From: Spirochaetia bacterium
GTDB lineage: Bacteria; Spirochaetota; Spirochaetia; SZUA-6; Bin103
Length of the DNA: 64,000 nt
Reading direction: 5' to 3'
NCBI GenBank assembly: GCA_965203905.1
Contig: CBDBDQ010000005.1
Location: 2,240,001-2,304,000, forward strand
Shown: positions 30,301-45,146 of the stretch, one piece after another
How the letters are laid out: each line of letters begins with the position of its first letter
Position numbering within the stretch: position 1 is the first letter of the stretch
Notes under the pieces: generated by a model
What the model was told of the DNA's origin: nothing
The model's input: the letters and a program-made list of their open reading frames with translations, nothing else
Database searches by the model: none
Position numbers and translations under genes: made by a program

Positions 30301-30459
30301 CGAACCTCGGATTGCGCTCCGCGACGGGGGTAGTGCTGGCCGCTCATGGTTGCCGCCCGGTACATTGGCGGAGGCCGGGATTCACCTGACGTGGCCGGCC
30401 CGGGTCCGCGGCGGCCACGCACCTGCGTCGCTGCCAGCCCACGTCCGAGGAGGATATTC

Positions 30460-31245
30460 ATGTTCCTGTCGGCACGGCACCTGAAAAGCATCCGTCCCCT
30501 GCCCGCGCTGGTGGCCGCACTGCTGCTGCTGGTGCCGGTGTTGGGGTCCGCGGCGGACGAGACCGATTACCTGGCGATACTGCGCGCCATCGATCGCTCG
30601 CGCAGCTTCGACACGACCGACTTCTCCGCGGTCTTCACGGTGGTGTCGGAGAAGCCGGACGAGGAAAACAGCGTGTTCAAGGCGCAGATGTTTCGCCGCG
30701 ACGCCGAGGACAAGTTCGTGATGGTGTTCCTGGAGCCGGACGTGCAGCGCGGCCAGGGCTATCTGCAGGTGGACGACAACCTGTGGTTCTACGATCCCGA
30801 CAGCCGCAAGTTCTCGCACTCGTCGATGCGCGAGAGCCTGCAGGATTCCGAGGCCAACAACAGCGACCTCAACGAGTCCTCCCTGGCGGACGACTACACC
30901 GTGGAGACGGCCTCCGAGGGGAGCCTCGGGCGCTACGACGTGTACATCCTGGAGCTGAGCGCCCGTCACGACGAGGTCGCCTTCCCGCAACTCAAGCTGT
31001 GGGTGCGGCGCGACAACGACCTGGTGCTCAAGGCCCAGAACTTCAGCCTGTCGGGGCGGCTGATGCGCAGCGACTACTTCCCCAAGTACGTGCGCGTGGA
31101 GGATCGCCTGCTGCCGTCGCAGATGCTGTTCGTGGATGAGCTGAAGGAGGGCGAGCGCACCCAGGTGACGATGGCCAACACCTCCCTGGCGCGGGTCCCG
31201 GACTCGGTGTTCAGCAAGAGCTACCTGGAACGGGTCAACCGTTGA
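30460..31245 (+). CDS. Outer-membrane lipoprotein-sorting (LolA-like) periplasmic protein
   Basis: GAGGAGG RBS; signal peptide; GQGYLQVDDNLWFYDP, FSLSGRLMR, VFSKSYLER; operon context. Confidence 0.82.
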   Translation: MFLSARHLKSIRPLPALVAALLLLVPVLGSAADETDYLAILRAIDRSRSFDTTDFSAVFTVVSEKPDEENSVFKAQMFRRDAEDKFVMVFLEPDVQRGQGYLQVDDNLWFYDPDSRKFSHSSMRESLQDSEANNSDLNESSLADDYTVETASEGSLGRYDVYILELSARHDEVAFPQLKLWVRRDNDLVLKAQNFSLSGRLMRSDYFPKYVRVEDRLLPSQMLFVDELKEGERTQVTMANTSLARVPDSVFSKSYLERVNR

Positions 31246-32702
31246 CGCGGTGCTGCCGCCGCCTGGCGGCAACGGTGCTGGTGCTGGTCGCGGCGGCCGC
31301 GTGGGCGCAGAGTGGCACGGACGGCGCCGCCGCCCAGGGTGAGGGCGAGGATCTCGATGCCCTGTTCGATGCCGAGATGATCGAGGACGAGTCGGTCAAC
31401 GGCGACGGCGAAGCCGCGGCGTCCGGTGCCGGAAGCGGCGACCTGGATGCGCTGTTCGACGCCGAGGTGGTGGAGAACGCCGTAACCGCCAGTGACGCGG
31501 GTGCGGGCCGGGCGCCCGAGGAAGCGTTGCTGACGCGTGCCGGCGTCGACTGGGGCGGTTCGTTCCGCTACGCGCCGGAGGTCGAGCTCGGCTTTGCCGA
31601 TTACGACGCGCTGGCGGCGGCACTGCGCGGCGAGGGAGCGGCCGAGCGCACGCTGCGCCACGACCTGGGCGCGGAGTTGTACTTCGACGCGCGCCCGAGC
31701 AGCGACTTCCGCGCCTTCGGCAAGGCCAGGGTGGACTACAGGTTGCCCGCGACCGGCGCTGGCGGCGAGTTCACGTTCACCCTATTCGAGTTGTTCGCCG
31801 ACTTCCACTGGGACGACCGGGTGTTCTTCCGCGCCGGCAAGCAGCGCGCCGACTGGGGTGTGGGCCGGTTCTTCAGTCCCGCCGACCTGATGAGCCTGGT
31901 GACCATCGATCCGCTGGATCCGGAGGCGCAGCGCGAGGGTCCGGTAGCGCTGAAGGTGCATGCCCCGCTCGGGGTGCACAACGCCTACCTGTACGTCGTC
32001 ACCGGCGACTTTCGCGATCCCCTGGACATCGCCGTCGGGGCCCGTGCCGAACTGCTGATCGGCGGCGTCGAGCTGGGCGCCGGCGGCCTGGTCCAGGCCA
32101 ACCTGGTGCCCAAGGCGATCGCCACCGCCACCGGTTCGCTGGGAGACTTCGATCTGTTCGCGGAACTGGTAATTCAGCAAGGCACCGAGCGCAACCTGAT
32201 CGAGCTGGATGGCGCCGGCAGGCTCAAGGTAACCAGCCGCGACGCGCGCGCCGACGAGTGGTTCCCGGCGGCCACCATCGGCGCCCTGTACTTCGCCGCC
32301 GAGCCCGGCATCGTGCTCGCCGCGCAGTACTACTACAACCCCCTCGGTTACCCGGACAGCTCCGCCCTGGAACCGGCGCGCGCCGCCCTGCGGCCCGGCG
32401 CAGCCGGCCCGCCCAGTGGGCTGCGCCCGGAAGTGGTGGACCTGCTGTTCTTCGGGCGCCACTACGCCGGCGCCAGCGCGGCCTGGAACGGCATTGCCGA
32501 TAGCGACCTCAGCGCCTCCGTGTTCTGGCTGGCCAATCTGAGTGACGGCTCCGGGATCGTACGGCCCTCGCTGACCTGGCGAGTGCTGGAATACGCCCGG
32601 CTTTCGCTCGGCGCCAGCCTGGGCTACGGCACCGGAGCCACCGAGTACGGCGAACGCGTCGCCTTCACCCTGGGCGCCGCCCTTGGCGTCGGCAGCTTCT
32701 GA
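31242..32702 (+). CDS. Hypothetical outer-membrane beta-barrel protein
   Basis: Signal peptide; duplicated acidic DLDALFDAE; FFRAGKQRADWGVGRFFSPAD; amphipathic strands; C-terminal F. Confidence 0.72.
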   Translation: MTRCCRRLAATVLVLVAAAAWAQSGTDGAAAQGEGEDLDALFDAEMIEDESVNGDGEAAASGAGSGDLDALFDAEVVENAVTASDAGAGRAPEEALLTRAGVDWGGSFRYAPEVELGFADYDALAAALRGEGAAERTLRHDLGAELYFDARPSSDFRAFGKARVDYRLPATGAGGEFTFTLFELFADFHWDDRVFFRAGKQRADWGVGRFFSPADLMSLVTIDPLDPEAQREGPVALKVHAPLGVHNAYLYVVTGDFRDPLDIAVGARAELLIGGVELGAGGLVQANLVPKAIATATGSLGDFDLFAELVIQQGTERNLIELDGAGRLKVTSRDARADEWFPAATIGALYFAAEPGIVLAAQYYYNPLGYPDSSALEPARAALRPGAAGPPSGLRPEVVDLLFFGRHYAGASAAWNGIADSDLSASVFWLANLSDGSGIVRPSLTWRVLEYARLSLGASLGYGTGATEYGERVAFTLGAALGVGSF

Positions 32703-32822
32703 TCACGGCGACCGGTCTGTCCTTCAGTGCCAACTACCGGTTGCCGATGCGCGCCCCGGTGCCCCATCTTAACCGCACCAACAGAACTCGGACGAAGAGT
32801 TTGGTTACCTGAGAGGAGCATA

Positions 32823-33323
32823 GTGTTTCACACCAAGACGACGGTCGCGGCGCTGGCCGCGGTTCTGGTACTCGTGGCGGCGCAGGCGGCGTTCGCCGAC
32901 AGCGGATCGTTCCGCGAGGTCAGAAGCTTTCACCACGAGTACATCACCGTGGACCAAGGCGACGAGAAGTTCACTGGAGGCATTCTGCGGGGGACGGTAA
33001 CCATCGTCGACAGCAGCGGCGGGCCGTTCGTCGTCGGCGCCAACCGCCCTTGCGACTGCCTGGTGTATTCGCGGAGTTCGGACGGCGGGATCGAGCTGGA
33101 CGCACCATGTACCTCCACCGACGCGGATGGTGACATCGTGTATTCTCGCGCCGTCCGTCGCCAGGGCGACGTAGCGGTCGGCGGTGGCGGCGCGGGCACG
33201 TGGCAGTTGCTGGGCGGAACCGGCAAGTACGCGGGCATTTCCGGCACCTGTTCCTACACCACCGAGTACCTGGAGGGTGCGCGGGTGGCCGTCGTCAGCG
33301 AGTGTACCTGGAGCAGATCGTAG
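32823..33323 (+). CDS. Hypothetical exported small beta-rich protein
   Basis: GAGGAG RBS; AFA signal peptide; GTWQLLGGTGKYAGISG motif of the kind seen in allene-oxide-cyclase/dirigent-like barrels; five Cys. Confidence 0.72.
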   Translation: MFHTKTTVAALAAVLVLVAAQAAFADSGSFREVRSFHHEYITVDQGDEKFTGGILRGTVTIVDSSGGPFVVGANRPCDCLVYSRSSDGGIELDAPCTSTDADGDIVYSRAVRRQGDVAVGGGGAGTWQLLGGTGKYAGISGTCSYTTEYLEGARVAVVSECTWSRS

Positions 33324-33338
33324 CGGCGAACCGCCGCG

Positions 33339-33377
33339 CGTAACGCTCGGTTAAGAAATCCTAACCGGGCGGTAATC
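33339..33377. promoter_or_regulatory. Candidate OmpR/PhoB-type response-regulator tandem boxes
   Basis: TAA cores at 33341, 33352, 33362 and 33373 (11/10/11-bp spacing) in GC-rich DNA just upstream of the PDZ gene. Confidence 0.4.
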
Positions 33378-33411
33378 GGCACGCAAAGCCCGCATGGGAC
33401 TCTCATGCTTC

Positions 33412-34215
33412 ATGAAGACCATGGTGCGAGCGGGCATTGCGGGTCTGCTGCTGGCGGTGGGGTTGCCGCTGGCGGCCGAAGAGCATGACGCGGGGATACT
33501 GGTAACCGCGGTAGATCCGGACGGGCCGGCGGCCGCCGCCGGCATCGAGCGCGGCGACCTGATCCTGAGCATCGACGGCCGGTCGGTTGCCAGCGAGCGC
33601 GATCTCGCGGCGGCGTTGGCGGCCACCGAGGAGTCGCAGGTCAACCTTGCCGTCAAGCACGGCGACGAGGTGCGGGATCAGATGGTCTCCATCGACCGCG
33701 TCTGGGGACGCCCGCGGCTCGGGGTGAGGGTCCTGGCCGCGCCGGGCCATGGTGAAACTGAACGCCGGGACCGGATACCCGAGGTGCGCAGGTTCCGCTT
33801 CGACCGGCTGCCGGGTATGCCCGGAGCGCTGGTGACGGAGGTCGTCGAGGATGGTCCGGCCGCTGCCGCCGGTCTGCAGCCCGGAGACTGGATCACCGCG
33901 ATCGGCGACGAAGCCCTCGGAGACTCCAACGAGCAGCTCGCAGAGATCATCGAGAGTTACCAACCCGGCGCCAGTGTCGACGTGGAATTCCAGCGTGACG
34001 GCGAAGCGATGACCGCCACCGTCACCCTCGGCGCGAACCCGGACACCGGCAGCGCGCTGCTCGGCGTACGCTACCGCGTCCTGCCGTTCTTCGGCCGCGG
34101 CGACCTGGAGGACCTGCGCAACCTGTTCGACATGCTGCAGGAGCGTCTCCAGCGCCTCCGGCCCGCGCAGCCGGAGCCCGAGTTGGAGGTGCCGGACTCC
34201 AACCAGGCCCTGTAG
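33412..34215 (+). CDS. Exported tandem-PDZ protein without protease domain
   Basis: Signal peptide; two copies of VTxVxxDGPAAAAG(I/L)xxGDxIxxI; no trypsin catalytic domain. Confidence 0.85.
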   Translation: MKTMVRAGIAGLLLAVGLPLAAEEHDAGILVTAVDPDGPAAAAGIERGDLILSIDGRSVASERDLAAALAATEESQVNLAVKHGDEVRDQMVSIDRVWGRPRLGVRVLAAPGHGETERRDRIPEVRRFRFDRLPGMPGALVTEVVEDGPAAAAGLQPGDWITAIGDEALGDSNEQLAEIIESYQPGASVDVEFQRDGEAMTATVTLGANPDTGSALLGVRYRVLPFFGRGDLEDLRNLFDMLQERLQRLRPAQPEPELEVPDSNQAL

Positions 34216-34221
34216 CGATTC

Positions 34222-34620
34222 CTACCGCGGCAGCGCGGCGCGGATGCGCGCGGCCTCGGCCGCCAGCGCCTCGTCACCGGGGAAGGGACTGACGCTCGCG
34301 AAGTCCATGTCGTGCATCCCGTCGATCGGGCTCACGTGGATGTGCACGTGCGCCACCTCCAGCCCGGCGATCAGCAATCCTACCTTGGTGGGCCGGTACG
34401 CCGCCTGCTGCGCGCGGGCAATGGTGCGCGCCACCCGCATCAGCGTCGCCAGCATCTCCTCGTCCAGGTCGATCCAGTGGTCCACCTCGGCCCGCGGTAC
34501 CACCAGCGTGTGACCGGGACGTAGCGGTTCCCGCGACAGGAAGGCGACACACTCATCCTCCCGCCACACGAAATGGGCCGGCAGTTCGCCGGCGATGATG
34601 CGGGTAAAGACGCTTGCCAT
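34222..34620 (-). CDS. HIT family nucleotide hydrolase
   Basis: MASVFTRIIAGELP, GHTLVVP, HVHIH triad. Confidence 0.95.
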   Translation of the reverse strand: MASVFTRIIAGELPAHFVWREDECVAFLSREPLRPGHTLVVPRAEVDHWIDLDEEMLATLMRVARTIARAQQAAYRPTKVGLLIAGLEVAHVHIHVSPIDGMHDMDFASVSPFPGDEALAAEAARIRAALPR

Positions 34621-34642
34621 GACGCCGGCAGTGTAAACCGCG

Positions 34643-35461
34643 TCAGCGGAACAGGTCTTTGTCGAGGGGGCGGGGGATCATGGCGGCGCTGTGCGATTCG
34701 GCCGGCTGCGCCGGGCCGCCGTCCGGCGGCGGCAGGCCCTGCACCAGCGCGGCCGGAATGCGCTCGGTCGATTCGCCCATCACCAGCACGGCGGCGCCGG
34801 CGATGGCGTCGGCGCGGTTGATCACGGTTGCCTGCAACTCGCGGCCGTACAGGTCGCGGCTGCCGCGGCGGTCGTCGAGCACGGTGAGGCCGGCGGCGCC
34901 GATCGCGATGCCCACCGTGCCGAGCCGCCAGGGCCGGTTGCTGCTGTCGCTGATCACCACGCCGATCCGCTTGCCGGCGCGGGCCGAGACGGCGTGGTGC
35001 AGCCGCGCGGCGGTGGCGTCCGGCGCCGTAGGCAGCAGCAGGGCGGTGGCGCATCCACCGTGATCGACGTTGGACTGGTCGATGCCGGCATTGGCGCACA
35101 CCAGGCCCAGCCGATTGCGGGTGATCAGCACACCGGGGGCCTTGCGCACCACCTCGGTGGACTGCTCCAGGATGAGCTGGACCAGCCGCGGATCCTTGCC
35201 GGTCTCGGCGCCGAGCCGGGCCGCGCGCGCCGATGGCTCGACGCGATCGAGAGGGACCAGGCGCCCCTCCGCCTTGGAGACGATCTTCTGCGTCACCACC
35301 AGCACGTCGCCGTCGGCCGGGGCCACGTCCGCCGTGGCCAGCGCCGCTACCAGAATCTCCGTGAGGTCATCGCCCGCCGCCACCAGCGGGATACCGCTCA
35401 GCCCGATGACGGTGAGGCGCCCCACCGGCGCGTGACCGGCCGGCGCCGCGCTCGCTCCCAT
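34643..35461 (-). CDS. cofE: Coenzyme F420-0:L-glutamate ligase
   Basis: GDVLVVTQKIVSKAEGR, CANAGIDQSNV, ISDSSNRPWRLG, DLYGRELQAT, DLFR end. Confidence 0.95.
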   Translation of the reverse strand: MGASAAPAGHAPVGRLTVIGLSGIPLVAAGDDLTEILVAALATADVAPADGDVLVVTQKIVSKAEGRLVPLDRVEPSARAARLGAETGKDPRLVQLILEQSTEVVRKAPGVLITRNRLGLVCANAGIDQSNVDHGGCATALLLPTAPDATAARLHHAVSARAGKRIGVVISDSSNRPWRLGTVGIAIGAAGLTVLDDRRGSRDLYGRELQATVINRADAIAGAAVLVMGESTERIPAALVQGLPPPDGGPAQPAESHSAAMIPRPLDKDLFR

Positions 35462-35467
35462 CGGGCG

Positions 35468-36169
35468 CTAGCCCTGGCCGACCAGCTTGATGCCGGCGTG
35501 GCTGAGGGTGTGACGCCGGTTGATCTGAATCAGCACGCTGGTGAGCGCCTCGGCCGCGGCTGCGTTCTCGATCGGGCCGGCGTGCCAGCCGGTCATGCCG
35601 GCGGCCCGCACCAACTCGATCACCCGGTCGCGCGCCGCCTTCTTGTTGCCGGATACCAGCACGTCGCACTCGATGGCGCCCTCCTGTTGCAGCAGGTCGG
35701 CGGCAACGTTCTGGAATGCCGACACCACCATTACCTCGTCGCCGAGGAACTGCTGGGCGCGCTTGCCGGCCGATCCCTCGGCGGGAAGCTGCACGGTGCC
35801 CACTCTGGGAGGCACCAGCGGAACCGTGACGTCGACCACGACCTTGCCGGTGAGGCTCGCTCGCACGCTGGCCAGGGTGGCGATCTGATGCGCCGCGGGC
35901 ACGGTCAGCACGACAATGTCGGCGGCCTGCGCGGCCGCCGCGTTGGTCGCCGCACGGGCGCTGGTCTCGGGATGGCGCCGGCGCAGATCGGTGAGCGCGG
36001 CCTCGGCCTTCGCCAACTCCCGCGAGCCGATCAGCACCGGGTAGCCGGCCCGCGACCAGCGCTGCGCCAGGCCGGTGCCCAGGTCGCCGGTGCCGCCGAG
36101 GATGGCGATGGTATGCCTGGGCCGAGAGTCCTTGGCGGCGGCCGCCGCCTGCGCTTCGCTGCGCATCAT
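35468..36169 (-). CDS. npdG: NADPH-dependent F420 reductase (Fno)
   Basis: ILGGTGDLGTGLA, IGSR, DVTVPLVPP, SAFQNVAA, EALTSVLIQINRRH..HAGIKLVG. Confidence 0.93.
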   Translation of the reverse strand: MMRSEAQAAAAAKDSRPRHTIAILGGTGDLGTGLAQRWSRAGYPVLIGSRELAKAEAALTDLRRRHPETSARAATNAAAAQAADIVVLTVPAAHQIATLASVRASLTGKVVVDVTVPLVPPRVGTVQLPAEGSAGKRAQQFLGDEVMVVSAFQNVAADLLQQEGAIECDVLVSGNKKAARDRVIELVRAAGMTGWHAGPIENAAAAEALTSVLIQINRRHTLSHAGIKLVGQG

Positions 36170-36639
36170 CCTGCTGCCAGCTCCGATCCCGCCACCAGGC
36201 GAACGCCGGCGCCCGGCACCGCGTGGTCGCACGTCGGACAGAAGTAGCCCACCCGGACCGGCGTCCCGCAGGCGTGGTGCACCAGCGCCCCGCGGTCCGA
36301 CAGATGCCGGCGCCCCCACACCGCGAGCGCGCCCGCCACCACGCCCAGCTCGTGCCCGCGCCGGGTCAGGGTGTACTCGGCGCGCGGTGGATGCTGGCTG
36401 TAGAACCGGCGCTCCACGATGCCATGCCGAACCAGCCGCTTGAGCCGCTGCGACAGGACGTTCGGGGCGATCCCGCATACCCTCCGCCGCAGCTCGGCGA
36501 AGCGCTGAAAGCCGCGCAGCAGCTCCAGCAGGATCAGCACCGTCCAGCGGTCGCCGACGATCTCCAGCGCCTGCGCCACCGGGGCCAGGCGTTCGTCGCC
36601 GGCCTGCAGGACGGGGTGGGGATTCCGGTGAGTTGACAT
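36166..36639 (-). CDS. HxlR-family winged-helix transcriptional regulator
   Basis: ALEIVGDRWTVLIL, GIAPNVLSQRLK, YSQHPPRAEYTLT; C-terminal HHACG..CPTC; stop overlaps npdG start. Confidence 0.92.
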   Translation of the reverse strand: MSTHRNPHPVLQAGDERLAPVAQALEIVGDRWTVLILLELLRGFQRFAELRRRVCGIAPNVLSQRLKRLVRHGIVERRFYSQHPPRAEYTLTRRGHELGVVAGALAVWGRRHLSDRGALVHHACGTPVRVGYFCPTCDHAVPGAGVRLVAGSELAAG

Positions 36640-36665
36640 TTGATACCTGGTTGCATCGTAATACC
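36631..36665. promoter_or_regulatory. Two tandem 17-bp operator-like boxes RGTTG-N7-ATACC in the divergent promoter region
   Basis: AGTTG-ACATTTG-ATACC (36631-36647) and GGTTG-CATCGTA-ATACC (36649-36665), overlapping TTGACA and the regulator start codon. Confidence 0.65.
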
Positions 36666-36703
36666 TGCGTCGCCGCACCGTCCAGGGCGGACACGGCCGC
36701 TCC

Positions 36704-37513
36704 ATGCACGCGTCAGTCTCGATCACCCGCGTCAGCAAGGTGTTTCCCGCACCGCCCACCGTCACGCCCGCCGGTGGGAGCCCGGCTCCCGGCCACACCG
36801 GGCTGGAGGTGCTGCGCGGGATCACCGCCGAGGTCCGTCCGGGGGAGTTCCTGTCGGTCCTGGGGCCGAGCGGGTGCGGCAAGACCACGCTGCTGAGGAT
36901 CGTCGGCGGGCTCGCCGAACCGACCGCCGGCACGGTCCGCATCGGCGGCCGGAGCAGCGCCGAGGCGCAGCGGCACAAGCTGCTCGGTTACGTGTTCCAG
37001 GAGCCCTCGCTGCTGCCCTGGCGTAGCGTGCTGGACAATGTGCGCCTGCCGCTGCTGGTCAATCGCGCGGTGCGGCGGCCCGATGCGCCCGCGCCCGCGG
37101 AGCTGCTCCACCTGGTGCGGCTGGCGGAGTTCGCCGACTACTACCCCGGCCAGCTGTCCCGCGGCATGCAGCAGCGGGTCGCCCTGGCGCGCGCGCTGGC
37201 GCTCGACCCGGAGCTACTGCTGATGGATGAGCCGTTCGCGTCGCTCGACGAGATCACCCGCGAGCAGATGCGCTTCGAGCTGCTGCGCATTTGGGATGCG
37301 GCACGCAAGACCGTGTTGTTCGTAACCCACAGCATCGCCGACGCGGTGCTGCTGTCCGACCGGGTGGCGGTGCTCTCGGCGCGTCCCGGCCGGCTGCGCG
37401 CCATGCTGCCGATCGAGCTGGAACGGCCGCGGGTGGCGGGCGTCGAGCGTTCGCCGGAGTTCACCGGCGCCTACCGCCGGGTGCACGACCTGGTGATGGC
37501 GGAGGCGGCCTGA
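36704..37513 (+). CDS. NitT/TauT-family ABC ATP-binding protein
   Basis: GPSGCGKT, VFQEPSLLPW, LLMDEPFASLD, FVTHS; signature variant LSRGM. Confidence 0.93.
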   Translation: MHASVSITRVSKVFPAPPTVTPAGGSPAPGHTGLEVLRGITAEVRPGEFLSVLGPSGCGKTTLLRIVGGLAEPTAGTVRIGGRSSAEAQRHKLLGYVFQEPSLLPWRSVLDNVRLPLLVNRAVRRPDAPAPAELLHLVRLAEFADYYPGQLSRGMQQRVALARALALDPELLLMDEPFASLDEITREQMRFELLRIWDAARKTVLFVTHSIADAVLLSDRVAVLSARPGRLRAMLPIELERPRVAGVERSPEFTGAYRRVHDLVMAEAA

Positions 37514-38301
37514 TGCGCACGGCGGCAACGCGGCCGTCGGCGCAGCCCGCGGCGGCGCTGCTGCCGACCGTGCTCAGCCTGGCGCTGGTTGCCGCGGTGT
37601 GGGAGGCGTGGATCGCGCTGGCCGGTACCCCGGTCTACCTGCTGCCCGCGCCCTCGGCCGTGGCGCTTCGCGTGGGCGCCGAGCCCGGCTACTTCCTAGG
37701 GCAGGGTGCGATCACGCTGGCGGAGGCGCTCGGCGGATTCCTGCTCGGGACCGGCGTGGCGCTGGCCGCCGCCACGCTGATGGCGCACTCGCTGGCCCTG
37801 GAACGTGCCCTGCTGCCGCTGGCGGTGCTGGTCAAGGTGACGCCGATCGTGGCCGTGGCGCCGCTGTTCGTGATCTGGTTCGGGTTCGGGGTGGTGCCCA
37901 AGGTGCTGATCGCGGCGCTGATCACCTTTTTTCCCGCGCTGGTGAATGGCGTGACCGGCCTGCGCGCGGTCAACCCGGGGGCGCTGGACTTTCTGCGCTC
38001 GGTGTCCGCTTCGCGGCGCGAGGTGTTCCTGACCCTGCGCGTGCCGAGCGCCATGCCCTACCTGTTCGCGGCGTTCCGGGTGTCGATCCCGCTGTCGGTG
38101 ATCGGCGCCGTGGTGGGGGAGTGGTTCAGCGCCGACCGCGGCCTGGGGGCGGTGATCATCGTCGCCCATGCAAATCTCGACACCCCGACCCTGTTCGGGG
38201 CGATCTTTACCCTGGCGGTCATGGGCATCGGCCTGAGCCTGGCCGTCTCGGCACTGGAACGGAGGATACTGTTTTGGCACGAATCGACCCTCATCGTGTG
38301 A
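37513..38301 (+). CDS. NitT/TauT-family ABC permease
   Basis: LPAPSAV, PIVAVAPLFVIWFGFG, LRVPSAMPYLF, IGAVVGEW. Confidence 0.93.
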   Translation: MRTAATRPSAQPAAALLPTVLSLALVAAVWEAWIALAGTPVYLLPAPSAVALRVGAEPGYFLGQGAITLAEALGGFLLGTGVALAAATLMAHSLALERALLPLAVLVKVTPIVAVAPLFVIWFGFGVVPKVLIAALITFFPALVNGVTGLRAVNPGALDFLRSVSASRREVFLTLRVPSAMPYLFAAFRVSIPLSVIGAVVGEWFSADRGLGAVIIVAHANLDTPTLFGAIFTLAVMGIGLSLAVSALERRILFWHESTLIV

Positions 38302-39332
38302 CCCGGCCGGGGCGGCACGCCGGACGGCTGTGGCCGGCGCTGCTGTTGTTGGTGGCGGCCGCCCACGCCGTGCATGCGGCCGGCGAAGTGGAGATAGCGC
38401 CGTTGCCGCGCAGCATGACCTTCATGGCGGGCTTCAAGCCGCAGGCGAACCTGCCGTTCGTGGCGGCCTACGTAGCGCAGGAGCGGGGCTACTTTGCCGA
38501 ACAGGGGCTGGACGTCACCATCCACCACTCTACCGGCCAGCATCTCCAGCTCCTCCTGTCCGGCGACGTCGACGTCACCACCGCCGCCGCCGGCGCGGTG
38601 CTGAAGCGGCGCGCCGATCCCGGCGTCCCGATCCGGGCCATCGCCCTGTTCGGGCAGCGCGGCCAGCAGACCTTCATCGCGCTCGCCGGTGCGGGCATCG
38701 ACAGTCCGCGCGACTGGGAGGGCAGGACGGTAGGCTACCGCATCAGCCTGCCGCCCGAGTACCTGGCCATCGTGGATGCCGCGGGCGTGGATCGCGAGCG
38801 GGTGCAGGAGGTGCGGGTGGGCTTCGACCCGCGCATCCTGGTGCAGGGCAAGGTGGACGTGCTGGCGGTGTTCAAGTCGAACGAGCCCGACACCATTCGC
38901 AAGCTCGGCTTCGACGTGGTGCAGTTCGATCCCGCCGCCTATGGCGTGCCGGCGCTGGGGCTGACCTACATCACGCGCGAGGAGCTGATCGCCGAGCAGC
39001 CCGAGCTGATCGCGCGCTTCCTGAAGGCCGCGCTGAAGGGGCTGGAGTACTCGTTCGCCCACCCCGAGGAGACGCTCGACATCGTGCTGCGCTACGCCGA
39101 CAAGGAGGATCGCGACCACATGCGGTTCATGCTGCAGGCGGAGCAGGCCGACGCCGTGTCGGCGGTTACCCGCAAGCACGGGCCGGGGTGGATGACGCGG
39201 CAGCAGTGGCAGGAGTTCCACGACCTCCTGGTACGCTATCAGGCGCTGGCCCGGGAGCTGGACGTGACGCAGGCGTTCACCACGCAGTTCCTGGAGGCGG
39301 CGTACCAGGACGGCCGCCTGGTGTGGCCGTGA
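38298..39332 (+). CDS. NMT1/THI5-like ABC substrate-binding protein
   Basis: Signal peptide; GFKPQANLPFVAAYVAQERGYFAEQGLDV; RFLKAALKGLEY..HPEE. Confidence 0.88.
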   Translation: MTRPGRHAGRLWPALLLLVAAAHAVHAAGEVEIAPLPRSMTFMAGFKPQANLPFVAAYVAQERGYFAEQGLDVTIHHSTGQHLQLLLSGDVDVTTAAAGAVLKRRADPGVPIRAIALFGQRGQQTFIALAGAGIDSPRDWEGRTVGYRISLPPEYLAIVDAAGVDRERVQEVRVGFDPRILVQGKVDVLAVFKSNEPDTIRKLGFDVVQFDPAAYGVPALGLTYITREELIAEQPELIARFLKAALKGLEYSFAHPEETLDIVLRYADKEDRDHMRFMLQAEQADAVSAVTRKHGPGWMTRQQWQEFHDLLVRYQALARELDVTQAFTTQFLEAAYQDGRLVWP

Positions 39333-39380
39333 CGAGGATGCCGAGCTCGCCGTAAGCTGGGCGACGGCGAGGATGGGAGC

Positions 39381-40264
39381 ATGAAACTGGGAGTCGTCTT
39401 TCCGCAGATCGAGATCGGCGCCGATCCCGGTGCCGTGCGCGCGTATGGTCAGGCGGTGGAGCAGATCGGCTACCACCACATCCTGGCCTACGAGCACGTG
39501 GTAGGCGCCAACACCGCCAGCCGGCCCGGCTGGCGCGGGCCGTACGACATCGACTCGGTGTTCCACGAACCGTTCGTGCTGTTCGGCTACCTGACCGGGC
39601 TGACCGACCGCATCGAGTTCGCCACCGGCGTCGTGATCCTGCCGCAGCGCCAGACCGTGCTGTGGCCAAGCAGGCCGCAGCGCTCGACGTGCTGTGCGGC
39701 GGCCGGCTGCGGCTCGGCATCGGCATCGGCTGGAACGCCGTCGAGTACGAGGCACTCGGCACCGACTTCCACAACCGCGGGCGCCGTTGCGAGGAGCAGG
39801 TGGCGCTGCTGCGCGCGTTGTGGACCGAGCACGCGGTGACCTTCGACGGCACCTGGCACCGGGTCACCGACGCCGGCATCAAGCCGCTGCCGGTGCAGCG
39901 TCCCATTCCGCTCTGGTTCGGCGGCGGCGAGGAGCGCGTGCTGCGCCGCATCGCCCGCCTGGCGGACGGCTGGATGCCGCAGTTCGAGCCGGACGCCGCC
40001 GGCCGCGCACTGCTGGCCCGCATGCAGGGTTACGCGCGCGAGTGTGGCCGCGACCCCGCCGCGATCGGCCTCAACGGCCGCATGGTCGCAGATCCCGGTG
40101 CCGCCGCCGAACGCGGCTGGATCGACCGCGTGCAGGCGTGGCGGCAGATCGGCGGCACGCACCTGAGCATCGACACGATGCGGCTCGGGCTGCCGGATGT
40201 CGAGTCCCACATCAGCCTGCTGGAACGATTCCACGCCACCGCCGCCACGGTTGCCGAATCCTGA
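39381..40264 (+). CDS. LLM-class F420-dependent oxidoreductase (Rv2161c-like), split by a single-base deletion at ~39662
   Basis: MKLGVVFPQIEIG, EHVVG, FHEPFVLFGYL, ILPQRQT then AKQAAALDVLCGGRLRLGIGIGWN; restoring one G gives QTVLVAKQ. Confidence 0.85.
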
Positions 40265-40287
40265 GATCCTATGAAGGATCGTCTCAG

Positions 40288-40632
40288 TTATGAATCAGGC
40301 GGGCAGGCTTCCGCATCGTCCAGGTCCGAGAAGTTAGTGATCGTGACTGCACCCTGCGGAAACTCGGCGACGATGTTCAGCTTTCCACCCATCGCCTCAA
40401 TGTAGGCACGCAGGTTCGAGACATACATGTCCGCGCGCCGCTCCAGCTTGGCGATCGCTGGCTGGTTCACGTGCAACGTCTTGCCGACCGCCTTCTGGGT
40501 CATCGCTCGTGCCCTGCGCAACTCGTGAAGGGCCATTGCCGCACGTAGTTCCGCTTTCCTGCCATCGACGCGCGCGCGGCGCTCTGGCGTGAAGTCTTTC
40601 GTCAGGTCATTGAAAGCGTGTCGTCCACTCAT
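40288..40632 (-). CDS. higA: XRE-family HTH antitoxin (HigA-like)
   Basis: LHELRRARAMTQ, VNQPAIAKLERRADMYVSNLRAYIEAMGG. Confidence 0.88.
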   Translation of the reverse strand: MSGRHAFNDLTKDFTPERRARVDGRKAELRAAMALHELRRARAMTQKAVGKTLHVNQPAIAKLERRADMYVSNLRAYIEAMGGKLNIVAEFPQGAVTITNFSDLDDAEACPPDS

Positions 40633-40991
40633 TTGATCAACCCTTCTTGTCTCAATTCTTCCAGGTGCTCGTCGTAGAGTTTGTTCGCGAGAGGCACATA
40701 CTGCTTGTAAAACCGGTCGTTTCCTGTCTTGTCACCACCGATCAGCAAGACTGCTGATCGTCTTGGATCGAAGGCGTAGAAAACGCGGATGGGCCTACCA
40801 CCGCTTTGGATACGAAGCTCGCGGATATGGCTGTGGCGAGAACCCTCGACGCCAGAGGAATAGGGAAACGGCAATCCGGGCCCGTGCTCCATCAACAACT
40901 CGACCACCGCAGTTACGTCGTCCTGCTGACCCTCCGCGAGCCCGGCCCACCACGCGCCGAACTCGTTAGTGTATTCGACCTCCCAACTCAT
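40629..40991 (-). CDS. higB: RelE/HigB-like (Gp49/DUF891-type) toxin
   Basis: GPGLPFPYSSGVEGSRHSHIRELR, RVFYAFDPRRSAVLLIGGDK; toxin upstream of the HTH antitoxin. Confidence 0.88.
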   Translation of the reverse strand: MSWEVEYTNEFGAWWAGLAEGQQDDVTAVVELLMEHGPGLPFPYSSGVEGSRHSHIRELRIQSGGRPIRVFYAFDPRRSAVLLIGGDKTGNDRFYKQYVPLANKLYDEHLEELRQEGLIK

Positions 40992-40996
40992 CTGGT

Positions 40997-41025
40997 CGTG
41001 TATTCCATAAATGGAATGTTGTCAA
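40997..41025 (-). promoter_or_regulatory. higBA promoter with palindromic operator
   Basis: Minus strand TTGACA-17 bp-TACACG, ATG about 5 nt later (leaderless); ATTCCAT-AA-ATGGAAT palindrome at 41002-41017 in the spacer. Confidence 0.7.
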
Positions 41026-41040
41026 GTTCGCTCCTTGGGT

Positions 41041-41590
41041 GCGTGCGTCTCGGCTTCGGCGCGAACCAAAACCGAGAGCCGCAGACGCTCCGCATCGGGC
41101 TTCGCACGGCAACGTCCCAACGGCCGTCGCTGAGTCGCGCTCCGTCCTGCGCTACGCCCCGGCCGCCGCCGTCCGATTCGCCCGCTGCCTGTGCGCCGTG
41201 GCCTGCAGCGGCCGGTGCCGTCGCTTACTCCGCTACGCTCCGTCGCTTCCTCAAGCGGCCCCGCGATCGGCCTCCGGCGTACGCCCTACTGGTGTCTGTG
41301 TCGTGCATTGCCAGCCGCGAACGGTCGCCACAGGCGGGGCGCTACGGGGCGGCAACTCGAGCCAATCCACCGGCTGAACACCCGCGCGGTAGCTCACCCC
41401 GATCTCGACGTCAGGCCGACTCGGGACTCAGCCTCGAGATCGGTCCTCGGCGGCGACTCCGGGGGCGTTCCAAGGGACTCAAGGGTCGTACGGACGAGCG
41501 GGAGGGGCATCCACGCCGCAAAAGCATATACTTTTTTTCGAAGATTATACATGTAGGTCCCGAATCAGGGGTAACATGCATACTTTTTTA
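41041..41590. other. Structured non-coding region (REP/MITE-like or ncRNA) with an AT-rich promoter-like end
   Basis: Nested hairpins, e.g. CCGATCTCGA/TCGAGATCGG; minus-strand TATAAT at 41544-41549 flanked by two GCAT(AT)ACTTTTTT repeats; no credible CDS. Confidence 0.4.
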
Positions 41591-41660
41591 CACTGGGCGA
41601 AGCGAACTTGCATCGACGCACTGCCGGCCGGCGCCGTGGGCAGGCAGCGCGTTTACCCGG

Positions 41661-42605
41661 TCAGTCGAAGGCGGCGACGATCTCCTGTTCCATGCGCTGG
41701 ATCTCCTCGACACTGCCGGTCGTTATGTTGCCGAACATGATCTCGTCGACCCCTTCGTCGATCAACGCGCCGATCCGGTCCACCACCTGCTGGCGGCTGC
41801 CGACCATGGTACCCTCGCCGGTGCGCTTCATCAGGGTCGCGCCCGCCTTTTGCGCCGCGGCGTCGTCGCCGACCACGATCGGCATCAGAATCGTGCGCCG
41901 GATCTCGGCCGGGTCGCGTCCGGCGCGTTCGCAATGGCGCTCCAGCACCTCCACCTTGTGGCGGAATATCTCCAGCGACACGCCCTGCCCGGCCCAGCCG
42001 TCCAGGTTCATCACGTCGCCGTACTTGGCCAGGGTGCGCAGCGTGCGCCGCTCGCCGGTGCCGCCCACCAGAATCGGGATGTGCGGCTGCTGGTAGCAGC
42101 CCGGAGAGAGCTGCAACCGGTCGGCCCAGTAGTAGCGGCCGCGGAAGTCGATCGCGCCCTCCGTGGTGAACAGCGTGCGAATCAGCTTGCACGCCTCCTC
42201 GAAACGGTCCGAGCGTTCGCGCATGGTGGGGAACTTCCAGCCGAAGCCGTAGTGCTCGCGCTCGCACCAGGCGGCCCCCAGCGAGAGCGTAAACCGCCCC
42301 TTGGATGCCTGGTCGAGCGAGGTTGCCATCTTGGCGAGCAGCGCCGGGTTGCGGTAGGTGTTGCCCAGCACCAGGTGTCCGAGGCGCAACCGGCTGGTCA
42401 TGCCGGCGGCGACCGCGATCAGCGTATAGCCTTCGAACGCCGGCAGATGCTCGCTCTCCCGCTGGCCCTTGGGCCCGCCCCACGGCGGGAAGAAGTGGTC
42501 GGCGAACCAGAGGCTGTGCCACGCCCCCGCTTCCATGGTCGTGATCGACCGTGCGATCGCGTCCCAGGTGACGCCGTAACAGTTGACCTGAATTCCAAAC
42601 TTCAC
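41661..42605 (-). CDS. LLM-class oxidoreductase, probably F420-dependent (Rv1855c-like)
   Basis: WFADHF, LGHLVLGNTYRNPALLAKMATSLD, LGAAW.EREH, PILVGGTGERRTL. Confidence 0.88.
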   Translation of the reverse strand: MKFGIQVNCYGVTWDAIARSITTMEAGAWHSLWFADHFFPPWGGPKGQRESEHLPAFEGYTLIAVAAGMTSRLRLGHLVLGNTYRNPALLAKMATSLDQASKGRFTLSLGAAWCEREHYGFGWKFPTMRERSDRFEEACKLIRTLFTTEGAIDFRGRYYWADRLQLSPGCYQQPHIPILVGGTGERRTLRTLAKYGDVMNLDGWAGQGVSLEIFRHKVEVLERHCERAGRDPAEIRRTILMPIVVGDDAAAQKAGATLMKRTGEGTMVGSRQQVVDRIGALIDEGVDEIMFGNITTGSVEEIQRMEQEIVAAFD

Positions 42606-42747
42606 GTGGTTCTCCTCGTCTGCTTGTGCCCCGAAACCGCCGCCTGTCGGCGTCGCTCTTGGGCAGCTCGTCGCACTGTTTCACGCACCGGGACGGACGG
42701 TCAAGCTTGCGCGTCGCTCGTTTCATCAGCCGCTATACTGCCTCGTC

Positions 42748-43503
42748 GTGCGAGTGCTCAGTGGCAACATCGCCCATCCGGGGTTCGACAGCGATCCGCG
42801 CCTGGCGTGGCCGCCACGGCGGGAGGCGGTGCGGGCGGTGCTGGAACGCTGCGATCCCGACCTGCTGTGCCTGCAGGAGGTGAGCCGCGAACAGTGCGAC
42901 GACCTGTGCCGCTGGCTCCCCGGCTTCGGCCACCACGGCCAGGTGCCGCGCATCGACCTGCGCGACCCGCTCAACTCCATCTTCTTCCGGCACGCCCGGT
43001 TCGCCCTGATCGCCGCCGGCGGCTACTGGCTCTCCGAGCAACCGCAGGTGATCGGCTCGCGCTCGTGGGACAGCATCTATCCGCGCACCGCCGCCTGGGT
43101 GCGCCTGGCCGAGCGCTCCAGCGGACGCGAACTGCGGGTCACGGTGACCCACCTGGACAACGTCGGCGCGCTGGCCCGTGAGCGCCAGGCCCGCTTGCTG
43201 GTCGACGAGATGCTGGCGTTGCCCGGCGACTATCCCCAGGTGCTGGCCGGCGACCTCAACTGCGACGCCGCCAGCCCGGCGGTGGCGTGCATCCGGGCGC
43301 ACTTCGCCGACACCTGGGAGGCGGTGCACGGGGCCGTCGATCCCGGGCCGACCCGCCGCGGTTTCGACGGCGATGAACGGATCGACTGGATCTTCAGCCG
43401 CGGCCTGCGGGTGACCGCGGCGCGGATGGTGCGCGACACTCCCGGCGGCGTGGCGCCGAGCGACCACTGCTTCCTCACCGCCGACCTGCAACTGGAGGAA
43501 TGA
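42748..43503 (+). CDS. Endonuclease/exonuclease/phosphatase family protein
   Basis: SGNI, LCLQEV, THLD, AGDLN, IDWIF, SDH. Confidence 0.9.
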   Translation: MRVLSGNIAHPGFDSDPRLAWPPRREAVRAVLERCDPDLLCLQEVSREQCDDLCRWLPGFGHHGQVPRIDLRDPLNSIFFRHARFALIAAGGYWLSEQPQVIGSRSWDSIYPRTAAWVRLAERSSGRELRVTVTHLDNVGALARERQARLLVDEMLALPGDYPQVLAGDLNCDAASPAVACIRAHFADTWEAVHGAVDPGPTRRGFDGDERIDWIFSRGLRVTAARMVRDTPGGVAPSDHCFLTADLQLEE

Positions 43504-44522
43504 CGATGCCGCAGACGCGCCCGCCGCGGAAGTTGATTCAGGTCGGGCTGGGAGGATTCGGCCGGCGCTGGCTGGAGGTGGTGCTGGCCGATCCGCGCTG
43601 GGAGTACGCCGCGCTGGCGACGCGGACGCCGGCGGTGCGGGAGGCGGCGGCGCGGCGGGCGGGGCTGCCTTCGGAACGAACCGCCGGTTCCCTGGCGGCT
43701 GCCCTGGAGAGCGCGCCCGAGGCGGACGCGGTGCTGGTGACCACGCCCTACTTCCGCCACGCGGACGACGTGGTGACCGCCCTCGGCCACGGCAAGCACG
43801 TGCTGGTGGAGAAGCCGCTTACCGACAACCATGGCGACGCCGAGCGGATCCGGGCCGCCGGCCGCGCCGCCGGCACCACGGTGATGGTGGGCGAGGACTA
43901 CCGCTTCCGCGCCGGCCCTCGTGCCGTACACGCCATCCTGGAGGCGGGCGAGATCGGCGTGCCGGAGATGATCGACCTGCAGTACTTCGTGTCGCATCGC
44001 TTCCCCGCGGGCGACTGGCGCAACGACCTGCGCTACCCGGTACTGATCGAGAACAACACCCATCAGCTCGATCTGCTGCGTTATCTCACCGGGCGCGAGG
44101 CGTTGGCGGTCACCGCGAGCGCCTTTGCCAGTGCCGGCGACACGCCGTGGCCCTTCCCGTCGACGGCGGCACTGATCGAAATGGACGGCGGCCTGCACGT
44201 GACCTTCTCTGCGAGCTGGGCCTATCCCGCGCTGCGCACGCAGTGGGAAGGAACCTGGTTCATGCGCGGCCCGCACGGCGGTCTGCACTGGGACGAGAGC
44301 GGCATCACCGTGCTGCGCGGCGAGCGCCGGCGCGCTATCCCCGCCCCCGACCCGGCGCCGCGCCTCGACCGGGTGCTGGAGGAGTTCACCGCCGCGCTGG
44401 ACGAGGCGCGCGCCCCGAGCGTATCGCTGGAGGACAACCTGCGTACCCTCGCCATCGTCCTGGCCATGATCCGCTCCAGCGAAGAACGCCGCCGCGTGCC
44501 GCTGCCACGGTCAGCACATTGA
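43500..44522 (+). CDS. Gfo/Idh/MocA family oxidoreductase
   Basis: VGLGGFG, HVLVEKP, THQLDLLRY. Confidence 0.9.
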   Translation: MTMPQTRPPRKLIQVGLGGFGRRWLEVVLADPRWEYAALATRTPAVREAAARRAGLPSERTAGSLAAALESAPEADAVLVTTPYFRHADDVVTALGHGKHVLVEKPLTDNHGDAERIRAAGRAAGTTVMVGEDYRFRAGPRAVHAILEAGEIGVPEMIDLQYFVSHRFPAGDWRNDLRYPVLIENNTHQLDLLRYLTGREALAVTASAFASAGDTPWPFPSTAALIEMDGGLHVTFSASWAYPALRTQWEGTWFMRGPHGGLHWDESGITVLRGERRRAIPAPDPAPRLDRVLEEFTAALDEARAPSVSLEDNLRTLAIVLAMIRSSEERRRVPLPRSAH

Positions 44523-44540
44523 CTCCGCGACTCGGGGCGC

Positions 44541-45146
44541 TATCAGGGAGCGCAACGGTGGGAGCACGAGCGGGAGTTTGCGGACCTGGTAACGGACGCG
44601 TCGCGGGAGTGGCGCTGGGTGCCGAGGTTCGAGAACCTGCTGATCGACCAGACGGAGTTGGGCGCGGAATCGGTGACGGGCGCGGTAGCGGCGCGGGTGC
44701 TGCAGATCGCGATGATGGCGACGTTTCGGAAAGCGCCGGAGGAGTTGCTGGAATCGGTGACGCGGTTGATCGGGGAGTTGTACCGCGCCAGGGGGTTCGA
44801 GGAAGTGGCGAAGCACGTGGAGTACGTGCTGGCGACGCAGCCGGAAGCACAGCGCAAGGTGTTTTCGGAGGCACTGCGGAGGAACGTGCCGGGTCGCGGA
44901 GGAGAGGTGATGAATTACGTGGAAGAAATGATCGAGCGAGGCCGCCGGGAGGGTCGTCAACAAGGCCGCCGGGAGGGCCGCCGGGAGGGCGAATTGAAGG
45001 GGCAGGTGCGCGCCATCGAGGGGTTCGTGGCACGAGATATACCGTGGCCCACCATCGAAGCGGCCACGGGAATCGACGAGGCCACATTCCGGCGCCTCAG
45101 GCAGCGTGTCGAGGCCGAGGACAACGGGACAGAGTCCACCGTCTGA
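44541..45146 (+). pseudogene. 5'-truncated Rpn/YhgA-like (transposase_31) nuclease; C-terminal half only
   Basis: In-frame YQGAQRW...WVPRFENLLIDQ resembles the Rpn mid-region (YHG..W..P.F...LID); tail MNYVEEMIERGRREGRQQGRREGRREG..IEAATGI; PD-(D/E)XK N-terminus absent. Confidence 0.75.
44910..45146 (+). CDS. Candidate RpnS-like small protein (78 aa) from an internal start
   Basis: GGAGGAGAGG (44898-44907) directly before the in-frame ATG at 44910. Confidence 0.45.
   Translation: MNYVEEMIERGRREGRQQGRREGRREGELKGQVRAIEGFVARDIPWPTIEAATGIDEATFRRLRQRVEAEDNGTESTV

Follow-up and report, generated by a model that had tools for sequence, protein, structure and literature searches.

A candidate deazaflavin importer in a putative F420 salvage cassette of a Spirochaetia-labelled bacterium in which the early F420 genes were not found

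How might a bacterium use the deazaflavin cofactor F420 when only late steps of the pathway are recognisable in its genome? The question is raised by a window of 64,000 nucleotides (the whole stretch analysed here; positions 2,240,001 to 2,304,000 of contig CBDBDQ010000005.1, assembly GCA_965203905.1, labelled Spirochaetia bacterium). At 34222-40264 of this window, a first-pass annotation made from the letters alone described two gene strings diverging from a short spacer: hxlR, npdG, cofE and a HIT-family gene on the left arm, and on the right arm genes for the ATPase, permease and NMT1/THI5-like solute-binding protein (SBP) of an ATP-binding cassette (ABC) transporter, followed by a luciferase-like monooxygenase (LLM)-type oxidoreductase. 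It proposed that the transporter scavenges deazaflavins (FO, F420-0 or F420) made by community members, which are then matured and recharged locally. A whole-genome search and the linkage of orthologous transporters to F420 genes in other bacteria lend this proposal computational support, and we place at roughly 60% the probability that the transporter is a deazaflavin importer within a salvage-and-use cassette, which would be a new specificity among ThiY-like ABC importers. In the best reading of the data, the locus would be a horizontally assembled cassette in a lineage unable to make F420.

The genome measures 8.0 Mb in 5 contigs (98.71% complete, 7.9% contamination), and the window belongs to its 7.8-Mb contig. 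The absence of cofG, cofH, cofC and cofD from the window, already remarked in the first-pass annotation, extends to the whole genome, where the search it recommended found none of the four. Profiles for FO synthase (TIGR03550, TIGR03551) and for CofC and CofD (TIGR03552, TIGR01819) gave no genome matches at E-values up to 0.001 and did match control genomes, and tblastn with Chloroflexota CofC and CofD as queries retrieved nothing from the genome. With no FO synthase, CofC or CofD found, the genome is predicted to be unable to make F420. It holds a single cofE and a single npdG above the respective cut-offs, together with one gene of the F420H2-dependent flavin/deazaflavin oxidoreductase family FDOR-A (PF04075, 148 bits), located 2.86 Mb from the cassette; no match above the cut-off was obtained in this genome for the F420-class PPOX model TIGR03618. 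A second CofE-like gene (G000:C5:2056655-2057269; L002 1490-2244), with a score of 111 bits that does not reach the cut-off, immediately follows an Hsp70-like gene. This divergent paralog is present throughout the genus, including two genomes that are without cofE (G009 and G010), and its product may be a glutamate ligase, FolC-like as in chlamydiae or of another kind.

For the transporter, close homologs (50-68% identity) are abundant and belong almost entirely to the Chloroflexota (Dehalococcoidia, SAR202 and Ardenticatenaceae), and the relatives within the genus are titled Spirochaetia or Spirochaetaceae metagenome-assembled genomes (MAGs). In a quick maximum-likelihood tree (IQ-TREE), the root of which is unsure as it is given only by very long paralog branches, the seven SBPs of the genus form one clade (support 100) nested among the Chloroflexota, next to loci that carry hxlR. 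Of 77 Chloroflexota loci, 72 have the ATPase and permease genes next to the SBP ortholog, and in 13 of the 77 hxlR homologs of 59-71% identity adjoin the transporter; the hxlR-transporter block is accordingly classed, from such resemblance, as being of Chloroflexota type. CofE of the genus shares only 47-49% identity with Chloroflexota CofE encoded beside the transporter, and its nearest named relatives outside the genus, at 62-63% identity, are labelled Gammaproteobacteria or Pseudomonadales. The transporter is thus Chloroflexota-like but CofE is nearer to that of Gammaproteobacteria, which indicates that the cassette is a mosaic and that the pairing of F420 genes with the transporter arose independently here. 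Marine MAGs account for many of the Chloroflexota genomes in which the transporter occurs.

The linkage of this SBP clade to F420 genes, which the first-pass annotation had suggested checking, was examined in 94 unique loci from outside the genus, including those of 19 further ortholog-bearing genomes from an even sample of the phylum. Probing with the window proteins only, among which there is no CofC or CofD to probe with, had detected cofE and npdG as neighbours of the transporter in 2 of 77 loci. With all four families, cofC, cofD, cofE or npdG was detected no more than 3 kb from a transporter gene in 15 of the 94 loci, and in none was an F420 gene found only at 3-10 kb. The F420 genes of the linked loci often lie within the transporter operon, in varied gene orders and with the two functions interleaved. 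The orders are ATPase-permease-SBP-cofD-cofC in L038, ATPase-permease-x-cofD-cofC-LLM-SBP in L051, cofD-cofC-LLM-SBP in L096, SBP-ATPase-permease-cofD-cofC in L105, npdG-SBP in L108, and SBP-cofC with the two genes 6-21 bp apart in L083, L084 and L104. In L106 the genes SBP-npdG-ATPase-permease-cofE share a strand, and the F420 genes are 68-271 bp away from their transporter neighbours. The divergent order seen in the window, with cofE and npdG facing away from ATPase-permease-SBP, recurs in L095, L120 and L104, and in L057 together with cofD. The family identities of the F420 genes in linked loci were confirmed by curated models, the cofC fragment of L105 falling below its cut-off, and F420-linked loci occur at no fewer than six (at least 6) separate places on the SBP tree.

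Several genes in these loci appear to be broken: the SBP of G334 is read in two frames (L105 8598-9522), a cofC-like stretch of G222 (L103 7792-8406) holds a stop codon and is possibly broken, and cofE of G319 (L104 2996-3732) gives two overlapping matches. A stand-in for CofC or CofD was sought around the clusters that are without cofD and no candidate emerged, the search in L106 yielding an alpha/beta hydrolase and a DUF6282 protein. An alpha/beta-hydrolase gene directly follows the SBP gene in L047, L050, L054, L059, L071, L094 and L099, and in L106 one lies beside it (9833-10678).

The even sample comprised 351 Chloroflexota genomes, each at least 90% complete, and the tallies include the unpublished genomes G071, G203, G206, G299, G308 and G355. 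SBP orthologs, scoring at least 259 bits against at most 155 bits for paralogs, were identified in 21 of the 351. The gene cofE is present in 237 of the 351 genomes, namely in all 21 with the ortholog versus 216 of the 330 without it (Fisher p = 3.8e-4, a value inflated by kinship). The gene cofD is present in 232 genomes of the whole sample and in 18 of the 21 carriers; among the cofE-positive genomes, 7 of 237 are without cofD, which corresponds to 3 of 21 with the ortholog versus 4 of 216 without it (Fisher p = 0.017). This excess of cofD-less genomes among carriers hints that F420-0 or F420-n is transported too. The gene cofG was detected in only 44 of the 351 genomes, and 193 of the 237 cofE-positive genomes are without it (search made for cofG only), which suggests either widespread FO auxotrophy in the Chloroflexota sample or an FO synthase of an unrecognised kind.

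Gene neighbourhoods were examined in 20 of the 21 ortholog-bearing genomes (G071 left out). F420 genes lie beside the transporter in 8, and in another 8 an IclR-type regulator fused to an F420-class PPOX-like domain is encoded directly beside it, giving a total of 16 of 20. Paralogous NMT1 matches, by comparison, were never near cofE or cofD in the approximately 24 paralog-bearing genomes with coordinates. The fusion protein (360-420 aa) consists of a complete IclR-type regulator and a C-terminal FDOR/PPOX-like split-barrel domain, and it is encoded beside the transporter in 12 of the 94 loci (L083, L089, L098, L100, L109, L110, L113-L116, L118 and L119; for example, L119:5715-6836), of which ten were checked by NCBIfam; for the other two (L089 and L098) the assignment comes from clustering and alignment. 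In all ten proteins tested, the only NCBIfam matches of the C-terminal domain are to F420-class PPOX, with TIGR03618 scores of 48-58 bits that stay under the cut-off of 79. A structural model of one such protein, with a mean predicted local distance difference test score (pLDDT) of 83, matches IclR structures over its N-terminal two-thirds, and the matches of its last domain include the F420 reductase MSMEG_3380 (28% identity). The IclR-FDOR fusion is a candidate deazaflavin-sensing transcription factor.

Within the order, 41 genomes were compared, 11 of them from the genus (g1) and 30 from outside it. No cofD was found in any of the 41. True cofE occurs in 7 of the 11 genus genomes and in none of the 30 others, and the SBP ortholog occurs in exactly the seven genomes of the genus that have cofE; the single-contig complete genomes G009 and G010 have neither. 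In the six other cofE-bearing genomes the same genes are found together, at 74-96% amino-acid identity. The FDOR-A gene follows nearly the same distribution, being present (PF04075, 140-148 bits) in 6 of the 7 cassette genomes and in none of the 34 other relatives, with no match in any of 14 control genomes. It is not linked to the cassette, lying at least 60 kb away wherever both are on one contig (60-80 kb in three relatives). In a lineage that has no biosynthetic pathway, F420-dependent enzymes are thus seen to accompany the cassette, in kin genomes that represent few independent events.

A different account of the locus holds that the transporter is a RibY-like riboflavin importer, or that the whole is decaying foreign DNA without present function. 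RibY, of the RibXY system, is a riboflavin-capturing SBP of the same broad NMT1/THI5 fold, and riboflavin itself resembles FO; the impression of decay comes from an LLM gene that is frameshifted in this genome and truncated in G005, where the HIT gene is also missing, and from the lack of the cassette in 4 of the 11 genus genomes. Rfam scans of the sequence upstream of the transporter, here and in 24 related loci, detected no FMN (flavin mononucleotide) riboswitch, and riboflavin import would be unnecessary, since riboflavin synthase (ribE) is present in 7 of the 7 genus genomes searched. Decay is contradicted by the ratios of nonsynonymous to synonymous substitution (dN/dS), whose medians among the seven genomes range from 0.11 to 0.30 for every cassette gene (pairwise Nei-Gojobori; 0.15 for the permease, 0.21 for npdG, 0.25 for the HIT gene and 0.30 for cofE): the cassette is kept under purifying selection. 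The co-variation with the unlinked FDOR-A gene likewise argues that the cassette is in use. Either version of this account is very unlikely.

Public runs labelled sponge metagenome, from several studies, hold the 34222-40264 stretch or close relatives of it, and one sponge metatranscriptome run contains contigs that are 93-97% alike over all cassette genes, which is a weak hint of expression because DNA is possible in such libraries. The comparison was made by contigs; it carries no expression levels, transcript ends or strand, and parts left uncovered have no meaning.

The anatomy of the locus agrees with the first description in nearly every respect (Table 1). Profile matches and translations confirm the layout and coordinates of the two diverging arms, Pfam and NCBIfam profiles uphold all eight gene assignments, and the spacer between the ATG codons of hxlR and the ATPase gene is exactly 64 bp long. 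The start of npdG overlaps the stop of hxlR by 4 nt, and overlaps of the same length join the ATPase gene to the permease gene and the permease gene to the SBP gene; with this tight packing, each arm looks like one transcription unit. The CofE match covers profile positions 2-244 of 244 and is thus full-length as well as above the equivalog cut-off, so that the product is predicted to be an F420-0:gamma-glutamyl ligase, with GTP-dependent glutamylation expected from family membership. The three importer components (PF00005, PF00528 and PF09084) in one overlapping gene string form the layout of an SBP-dependent type-I ABC importer, and the top NCBIfam matches of the ATPase are nitrate/taurine/sulfonate-type ATPases, every one under its cut-off. 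SBP-dependent ABC systems are importers; hence, the presence of the SBP sets the direction of transport as import.

Table 1. Features of the divergent locus and the second LLM gene, in window coordinates
Feature	Position	Strand	Evidence and remarks
HIT-family protein	34222..34620	-	PF01230, E 2e-19; HxHxH motif in translation; last gene of left arm
cofE, predicted F420-0:gamma-glutamyl ligase	34643..35461	-	TIGR01916, 257.3 bits (cut-off 180.65); PF01996, E 1e-73
npdG/fno, predicted NADPH-dependent F420 reductase	35468..36169	-	TIGR01915, 182.7 bits (cut-off 149.8)
HxlR-type transcription regulator	36166..36639	-	PF01638, E 2e-26, 92 bits (gathering threshold 20.8); first gene of left arm
Divergent spacer, presumed promoter/operator	36640..36703	.	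64 bp; block conserved across the genus
ABC transporter ATPase	36704..37513	+	PF00005, E 6.5e-31
ABC transporter permease (BPD_transp_1)	37510..38301	+	PF00528, E 4.9e-23
NMT1/THI5-fold, ThiY-like SBP, candidate deazaflavin-binding component	38298..39332	+	PF09084, E 1e-42
F420-type LLM oxidoreductase (TIGR03619 family), frameshifted	39381..40264	+	Two TIGR03619 part-matches
Second LLM, TIGR03560-like	41661..42605	-	207.4 bits, below the cut-off of 231.4

When the spacers of the seven genus copies (the window and L016-L021) are aligned, hardly any change is seen in a block of approximately 35 bp beside the start codon of hxlR or in a CCGTCCAG box, and the conserved block of the window contains the motif ATACCTG twice, 12 bp apart. 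This block is likely to be an operator or promoter. An Rfam scan of 30000-45000 at E-values up to 1 gave no match except a chance microRNA match away from the spacer. The HIT gene is kept in 6 of the 7 genus cassettes but at other places in the cassette, and is absent from G005; none was seen in the 77 Chloroflexota transporter loci. The open reading frames (ORFs) between the HIT gene and hxlR in L016 gave no family match. The LLM gene is immediately followed by a toxin-antitoxin pair of HigB/HigA-like type (40288-40991, minus strand; Gp49/DUF891 toxin PF05973 and HTH_37 antitoxin PF13744), and in G005 (L020) a pair 37-38% identical to it is found approximately 4 kb from the cassette. The GC content of the window dips to 0.64 over 40-42 kb.

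The specificity of the transporter depends on its SBP, which scores 147 bits against PF09084 (gathering threshold 20.5) and stays under the cut-offs of the sulfonate and taurine receptor models, with 58.3 bits against SsuA_fam (TIGR01728, cut-off 163.5), 23.7 bits against TauA (TIGR01729, cut-off 304) and a score far under the cut-off for SaoX. The closest sequences in the PDB are ThiY (3IX1; E 7e-29, 29% identity) and the thiamin-bound protein 4NMY (E 8e-28). An AlphaFold2 model (pLDDT 91) has a two-lobe periplasmic-binding fold, with a predicted N-terminal hydrophobic helix at residues 11-28 that fits export, and Foldseek matched this model to ThiY, 4NMY and Thi5 and, more distantly, to TauA, SsuA and PqqT, which binds pyrroloquinoline quinone (PQQ). 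By homology, the SBP is classed as a ThiY-like receptor, with a fold that has served repeatedly for the capture of heterocyclic cofactors: solved precedents include thiamin (4NMY), the formylaminopyrimidine FAMP (3IX1) and PQQ (PqqT, 9B1U).

These matches also favour a second account, in which the SBP is a ThiY-type receptor, the transporter salvages hydroxymethylpyrimidine (HMP), FAMP or thiamin, and the nearness of F420 genes has no functional meaning; judged by homology, this would be the strongest rival. It draws further support from thiC: searches in 7 genus genomes gave no match, 18 of the 21 ortholog-bearing Chloroflexota genomes are likewise without the gene, and the genus indeed seems to rely on thiamine, or the pyrimidine moiety of it, from outside. 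The genomic context points elsewhere. Rfam detected no thiamin pyrophosphate (TPP) riboswitch ahead of the transporter genes, whether in the window or among the 24 related loci scanned, and no thiamine gene family is among the 25 commonest families listed per scan for 193 immediate-neighbour ORFs. The presence of thiC is equally frequent with and without the ortholog (3 of 21 versus 61 of 330, p = 0.78), and two Chloroflexota genomes that have thiC (G042 and G141) nevertheless have the transporter attached to npdG-cofE. In the genus, the distribution of the ortholog matches that of cofE and not that of thiC, and another NMT1 ABC system, also ThiY-like (G000:C5:203893-204876; L121 7879-8907), is present genus-wide, including in G009 and G010, and is a candidate for thiamine or pyrimidine uptake. 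Despite its standing by homology, we consider the thiamine account distinctly improbable. A single TPP riboswitch was observed in G319 (L104 18540-18652, minus strand; 58.9 bits versus a gathering score of 54.3), 8.7 kb off the transporter on the other strand and facing another gene.

The gene that follows the SBP in the window was initially read as an F420-type LLM oxidoreductase. The family assignment stands (TIGR03619), but the gene is not a single open frame, owing to a 1-bp deletion after 39661 that the first description missed; one G is absent here relative to four relatives with an intact frame. Profile positions 2-76 and 77-246 match in different frames, the second part alone reaching 175 bits (cut-off 166.9). 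Of the 6 other genus cassettes, 5 have an unbroken frame, and in G005 the gene is truncated. Contigs of other public runs carry the extra G (X3 and X19), a metatranscriptome among them, and it is absent from the X1 depth; the run that holds 97% of the stretch is without it. Its presence in other public runs makes the break look like an allele of the strain, not a property of the system. The second LLM gene noted earlier is present as described (Table 1), is peripheral and is not beside the cassette in relatives; it is one of five paralogs in the genome, of which the other four are 45-61% identical and lie elsewhere on contig C5.

A third account takes its lead from these LLM genes: the transporter would import a small organic substrate, sulfonate-like or heterocyclic, of F420-dependent enzymes such as the LLM, and the F420 genes would supply the cofactor, in parallel with ssuABC-ssuD. 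The right arm (ATPase, permease, SBP, LLM) does have an ssu/tau-like layout; an LLM gene stands between cofC and the SBP gene in L051 and L096, beside the SBP gene in L045 and divergent from the operon in L106; an alpha/beta-hydrolase gene follows the SBP gene in several loci; and HxlR-family regulators are generally linked to the sensing of aldehydes or electrophiles. Most F420-linked loci, however, are without an LLM gene and join the transporter directly to biosynthesis genes, namely to cofD-cofC in L038 and L105, to cofC in L083, L084 and L104, and to npdG and cofE within the operon in L106. The low scores against the SsuA, TauA and SaoX models also speak against this account, which in addition leaves unexplained where a genome without cofG, cofH, cofC and cofD obtains its F420. 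We regard it as unlikely.

Under the favoured reading, that of a deazaflavin importer within a salvage-and-use cassette, the ABC importer would take up a deazaflavin released by community members, under the control of the divergently encoded HxlR regulator. CofE would then lengthen the gamma-glutamyl tail of imported F420-0 or short-tailed F420, and NpdG (Fno) would reduce the imported cofactor with NADPH; Fno can also reduce FO itself. The resulting F420H2 would serve the adjacent TIGR03619 LLM, broken here and intact in relatives, as well as unlinked F420H2-dependent enzymes, namely the one FDOR-A protein and perhaps the LLM paralogs. Of the three imported forms first proposed, FO alone would be useless to a genome without cofC and cofD, and the imported form must here already carry the phospholactyl group for CofE to have a substrate; F420-0 and F420-n thus remain as candidates for this genome, and FO alone is dropped. 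For most Chloroflexota carriers, in which cofC, cofD and cofE are present and cofG was not found, we infer that FO is the simplest missing input. The gene cofD is absent from the carriers G042, G141 and G223 too, so that either the transporter also carries F420-0 or F420-n or some other route exists.

Several observations weigh against this reading. The substrate of the importer is a prediction from gene content and context. The nearest solved relatives of the SBP bind small pyrimidines or thiamin, and F420-n is far larger and anionic, so that F420-0 or F420-n, the forms expected here, would be harder to fit into a ThiY-like pocket; a single substrate is likewise hard to reconcile with both cofD-positive and cofD-less carriers. 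In 79 of the 94 clade loci there is no F420 biosynthesis gene within 3 kb and the neighbours are housekeeping genes, and clustering of the flanking ORFs in the 80 best loci returned only lineage-specific housekeeping neighbours (PlsY, DUF255, ParA/Mrp, PFK, epimerase, BNR and MFS). The lack of cofG is not significantly enriched among carriers (cofG in 1 of 21 versus 43 of 216 cofE-positive genomes without the ortholog, p = 0.14), and the ortholog occurs in only 20 of the 193 (approximately 10%) cofE-positive, cofG-negative genomes, which means that the transporter cannot be the general route. An importer of HMP or thiamin would also be useful to a genus in which thiC is lacking, the LLM gene next to the transporter is defective in this strain and in G005, and genomes of the same genus or clade are kin, so that counts and p-values overstate independence.

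With ThiXYZ, the transporter shares the NMT1/THI5 fold of its receptor, the three-component type-I ABC layout and the salvage of a cofactor part made by others; ThiY and 4NMY differ from the window SBP, to which they are only 23-29% identical, and the window clade is instead embedded in F420 operons, with no TPP riboswitch or thi genes beside it in the loci and ORFs scanned. PqqT offers a parallel in that a receptor of the same broad fold captures a large heterocyclic redox cofactor from the environment, although it is distant from the window SBP (14% identity, template modelling score ~0.6). With the canonical F420 cluster (cofG and cofH or fbiC, cofC/fbiD, cofD/fbiA and cofE/fbiB), the window shares a genuine cofE, which forms a pair with npdG, an arrangement also found in many Chloroflexota, but the four earlier steps were not found in its genome, and the importer stands where FO synthesis would feed the pathway.

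Two further comparisons come from the literature. A chlamydial CofE homolog acts as FolC, a different use of the family (PMC1971073); as in the genome studied here, a CofE-family ligase occurs there in an organism without other cof genes, but the chlamydial gene sits among folate genes and is a member of a divergent subfamily, whereas the window cofE scores above the F420 equivalog cut-off and lies beside npdG and an F420-type LLM gene. A 2021 review of F420 (PMC8498797) describes an ABC transporter next to the cluster for 3PG-F420 (3-phosphoglycerate-derived F420) in Paraburkholderia rhizoxinica as a putative cofactor exporter. Like the transporter of the window, it is linked to F420 genes; by description, the two are set apart, since export from a producer is suggested there, whereas the binding protein of the window system points to import, in a non-producer.

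No importer of FO or F420 was known to the first-pass annotation, and none was found described in the literature, as judged by titles and abstracts. The 2021 review contains no occurrence of uptake, scavenging or salvage, and states that FO is lost from cells by diffusion (PMC8498797); a 2022 paper assumes that FO enters yeast by diffusion or through riboflavin carriers (PMC8859854). Users of F420 are taken to make the cofactor themselves, and a dedicated importer, if the reading is right, would be the first known for this cofactor and would name a testable protein for the cross-feeding of F420 or FO.

Such an importer would explain how F420 can be used by genomes with only the late steps or only CofE, and would change how F420 capability is inferred from genomes, given the proportion of cofE-positive Chloroflexota in the sample that are without cofG; it would also provide a means of supplying F420 to hosts that do not produce it, for use in biocatalysis. 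A wider picture, which is tentative and possible rather than probable, is that the ThiY-like ABC system of the window and the orthologous Chloroflexota transporters represent the first deazaflavin importers, with F420 and its FO headgroup shared like vitamins within sponge and marine communities. Most Chloroflexota that use F420 may then be FO auxotrophs, and the Spirochaetia-labelled genus may be a complete F420 auxotroph that imports ready-made F420, lengthens its tail with CofE, as is done with folates, for retention and tuning, and recharges it with NpdG, with HxlR and the IclR-FDOR fusion serving as deazaflavin sensors.

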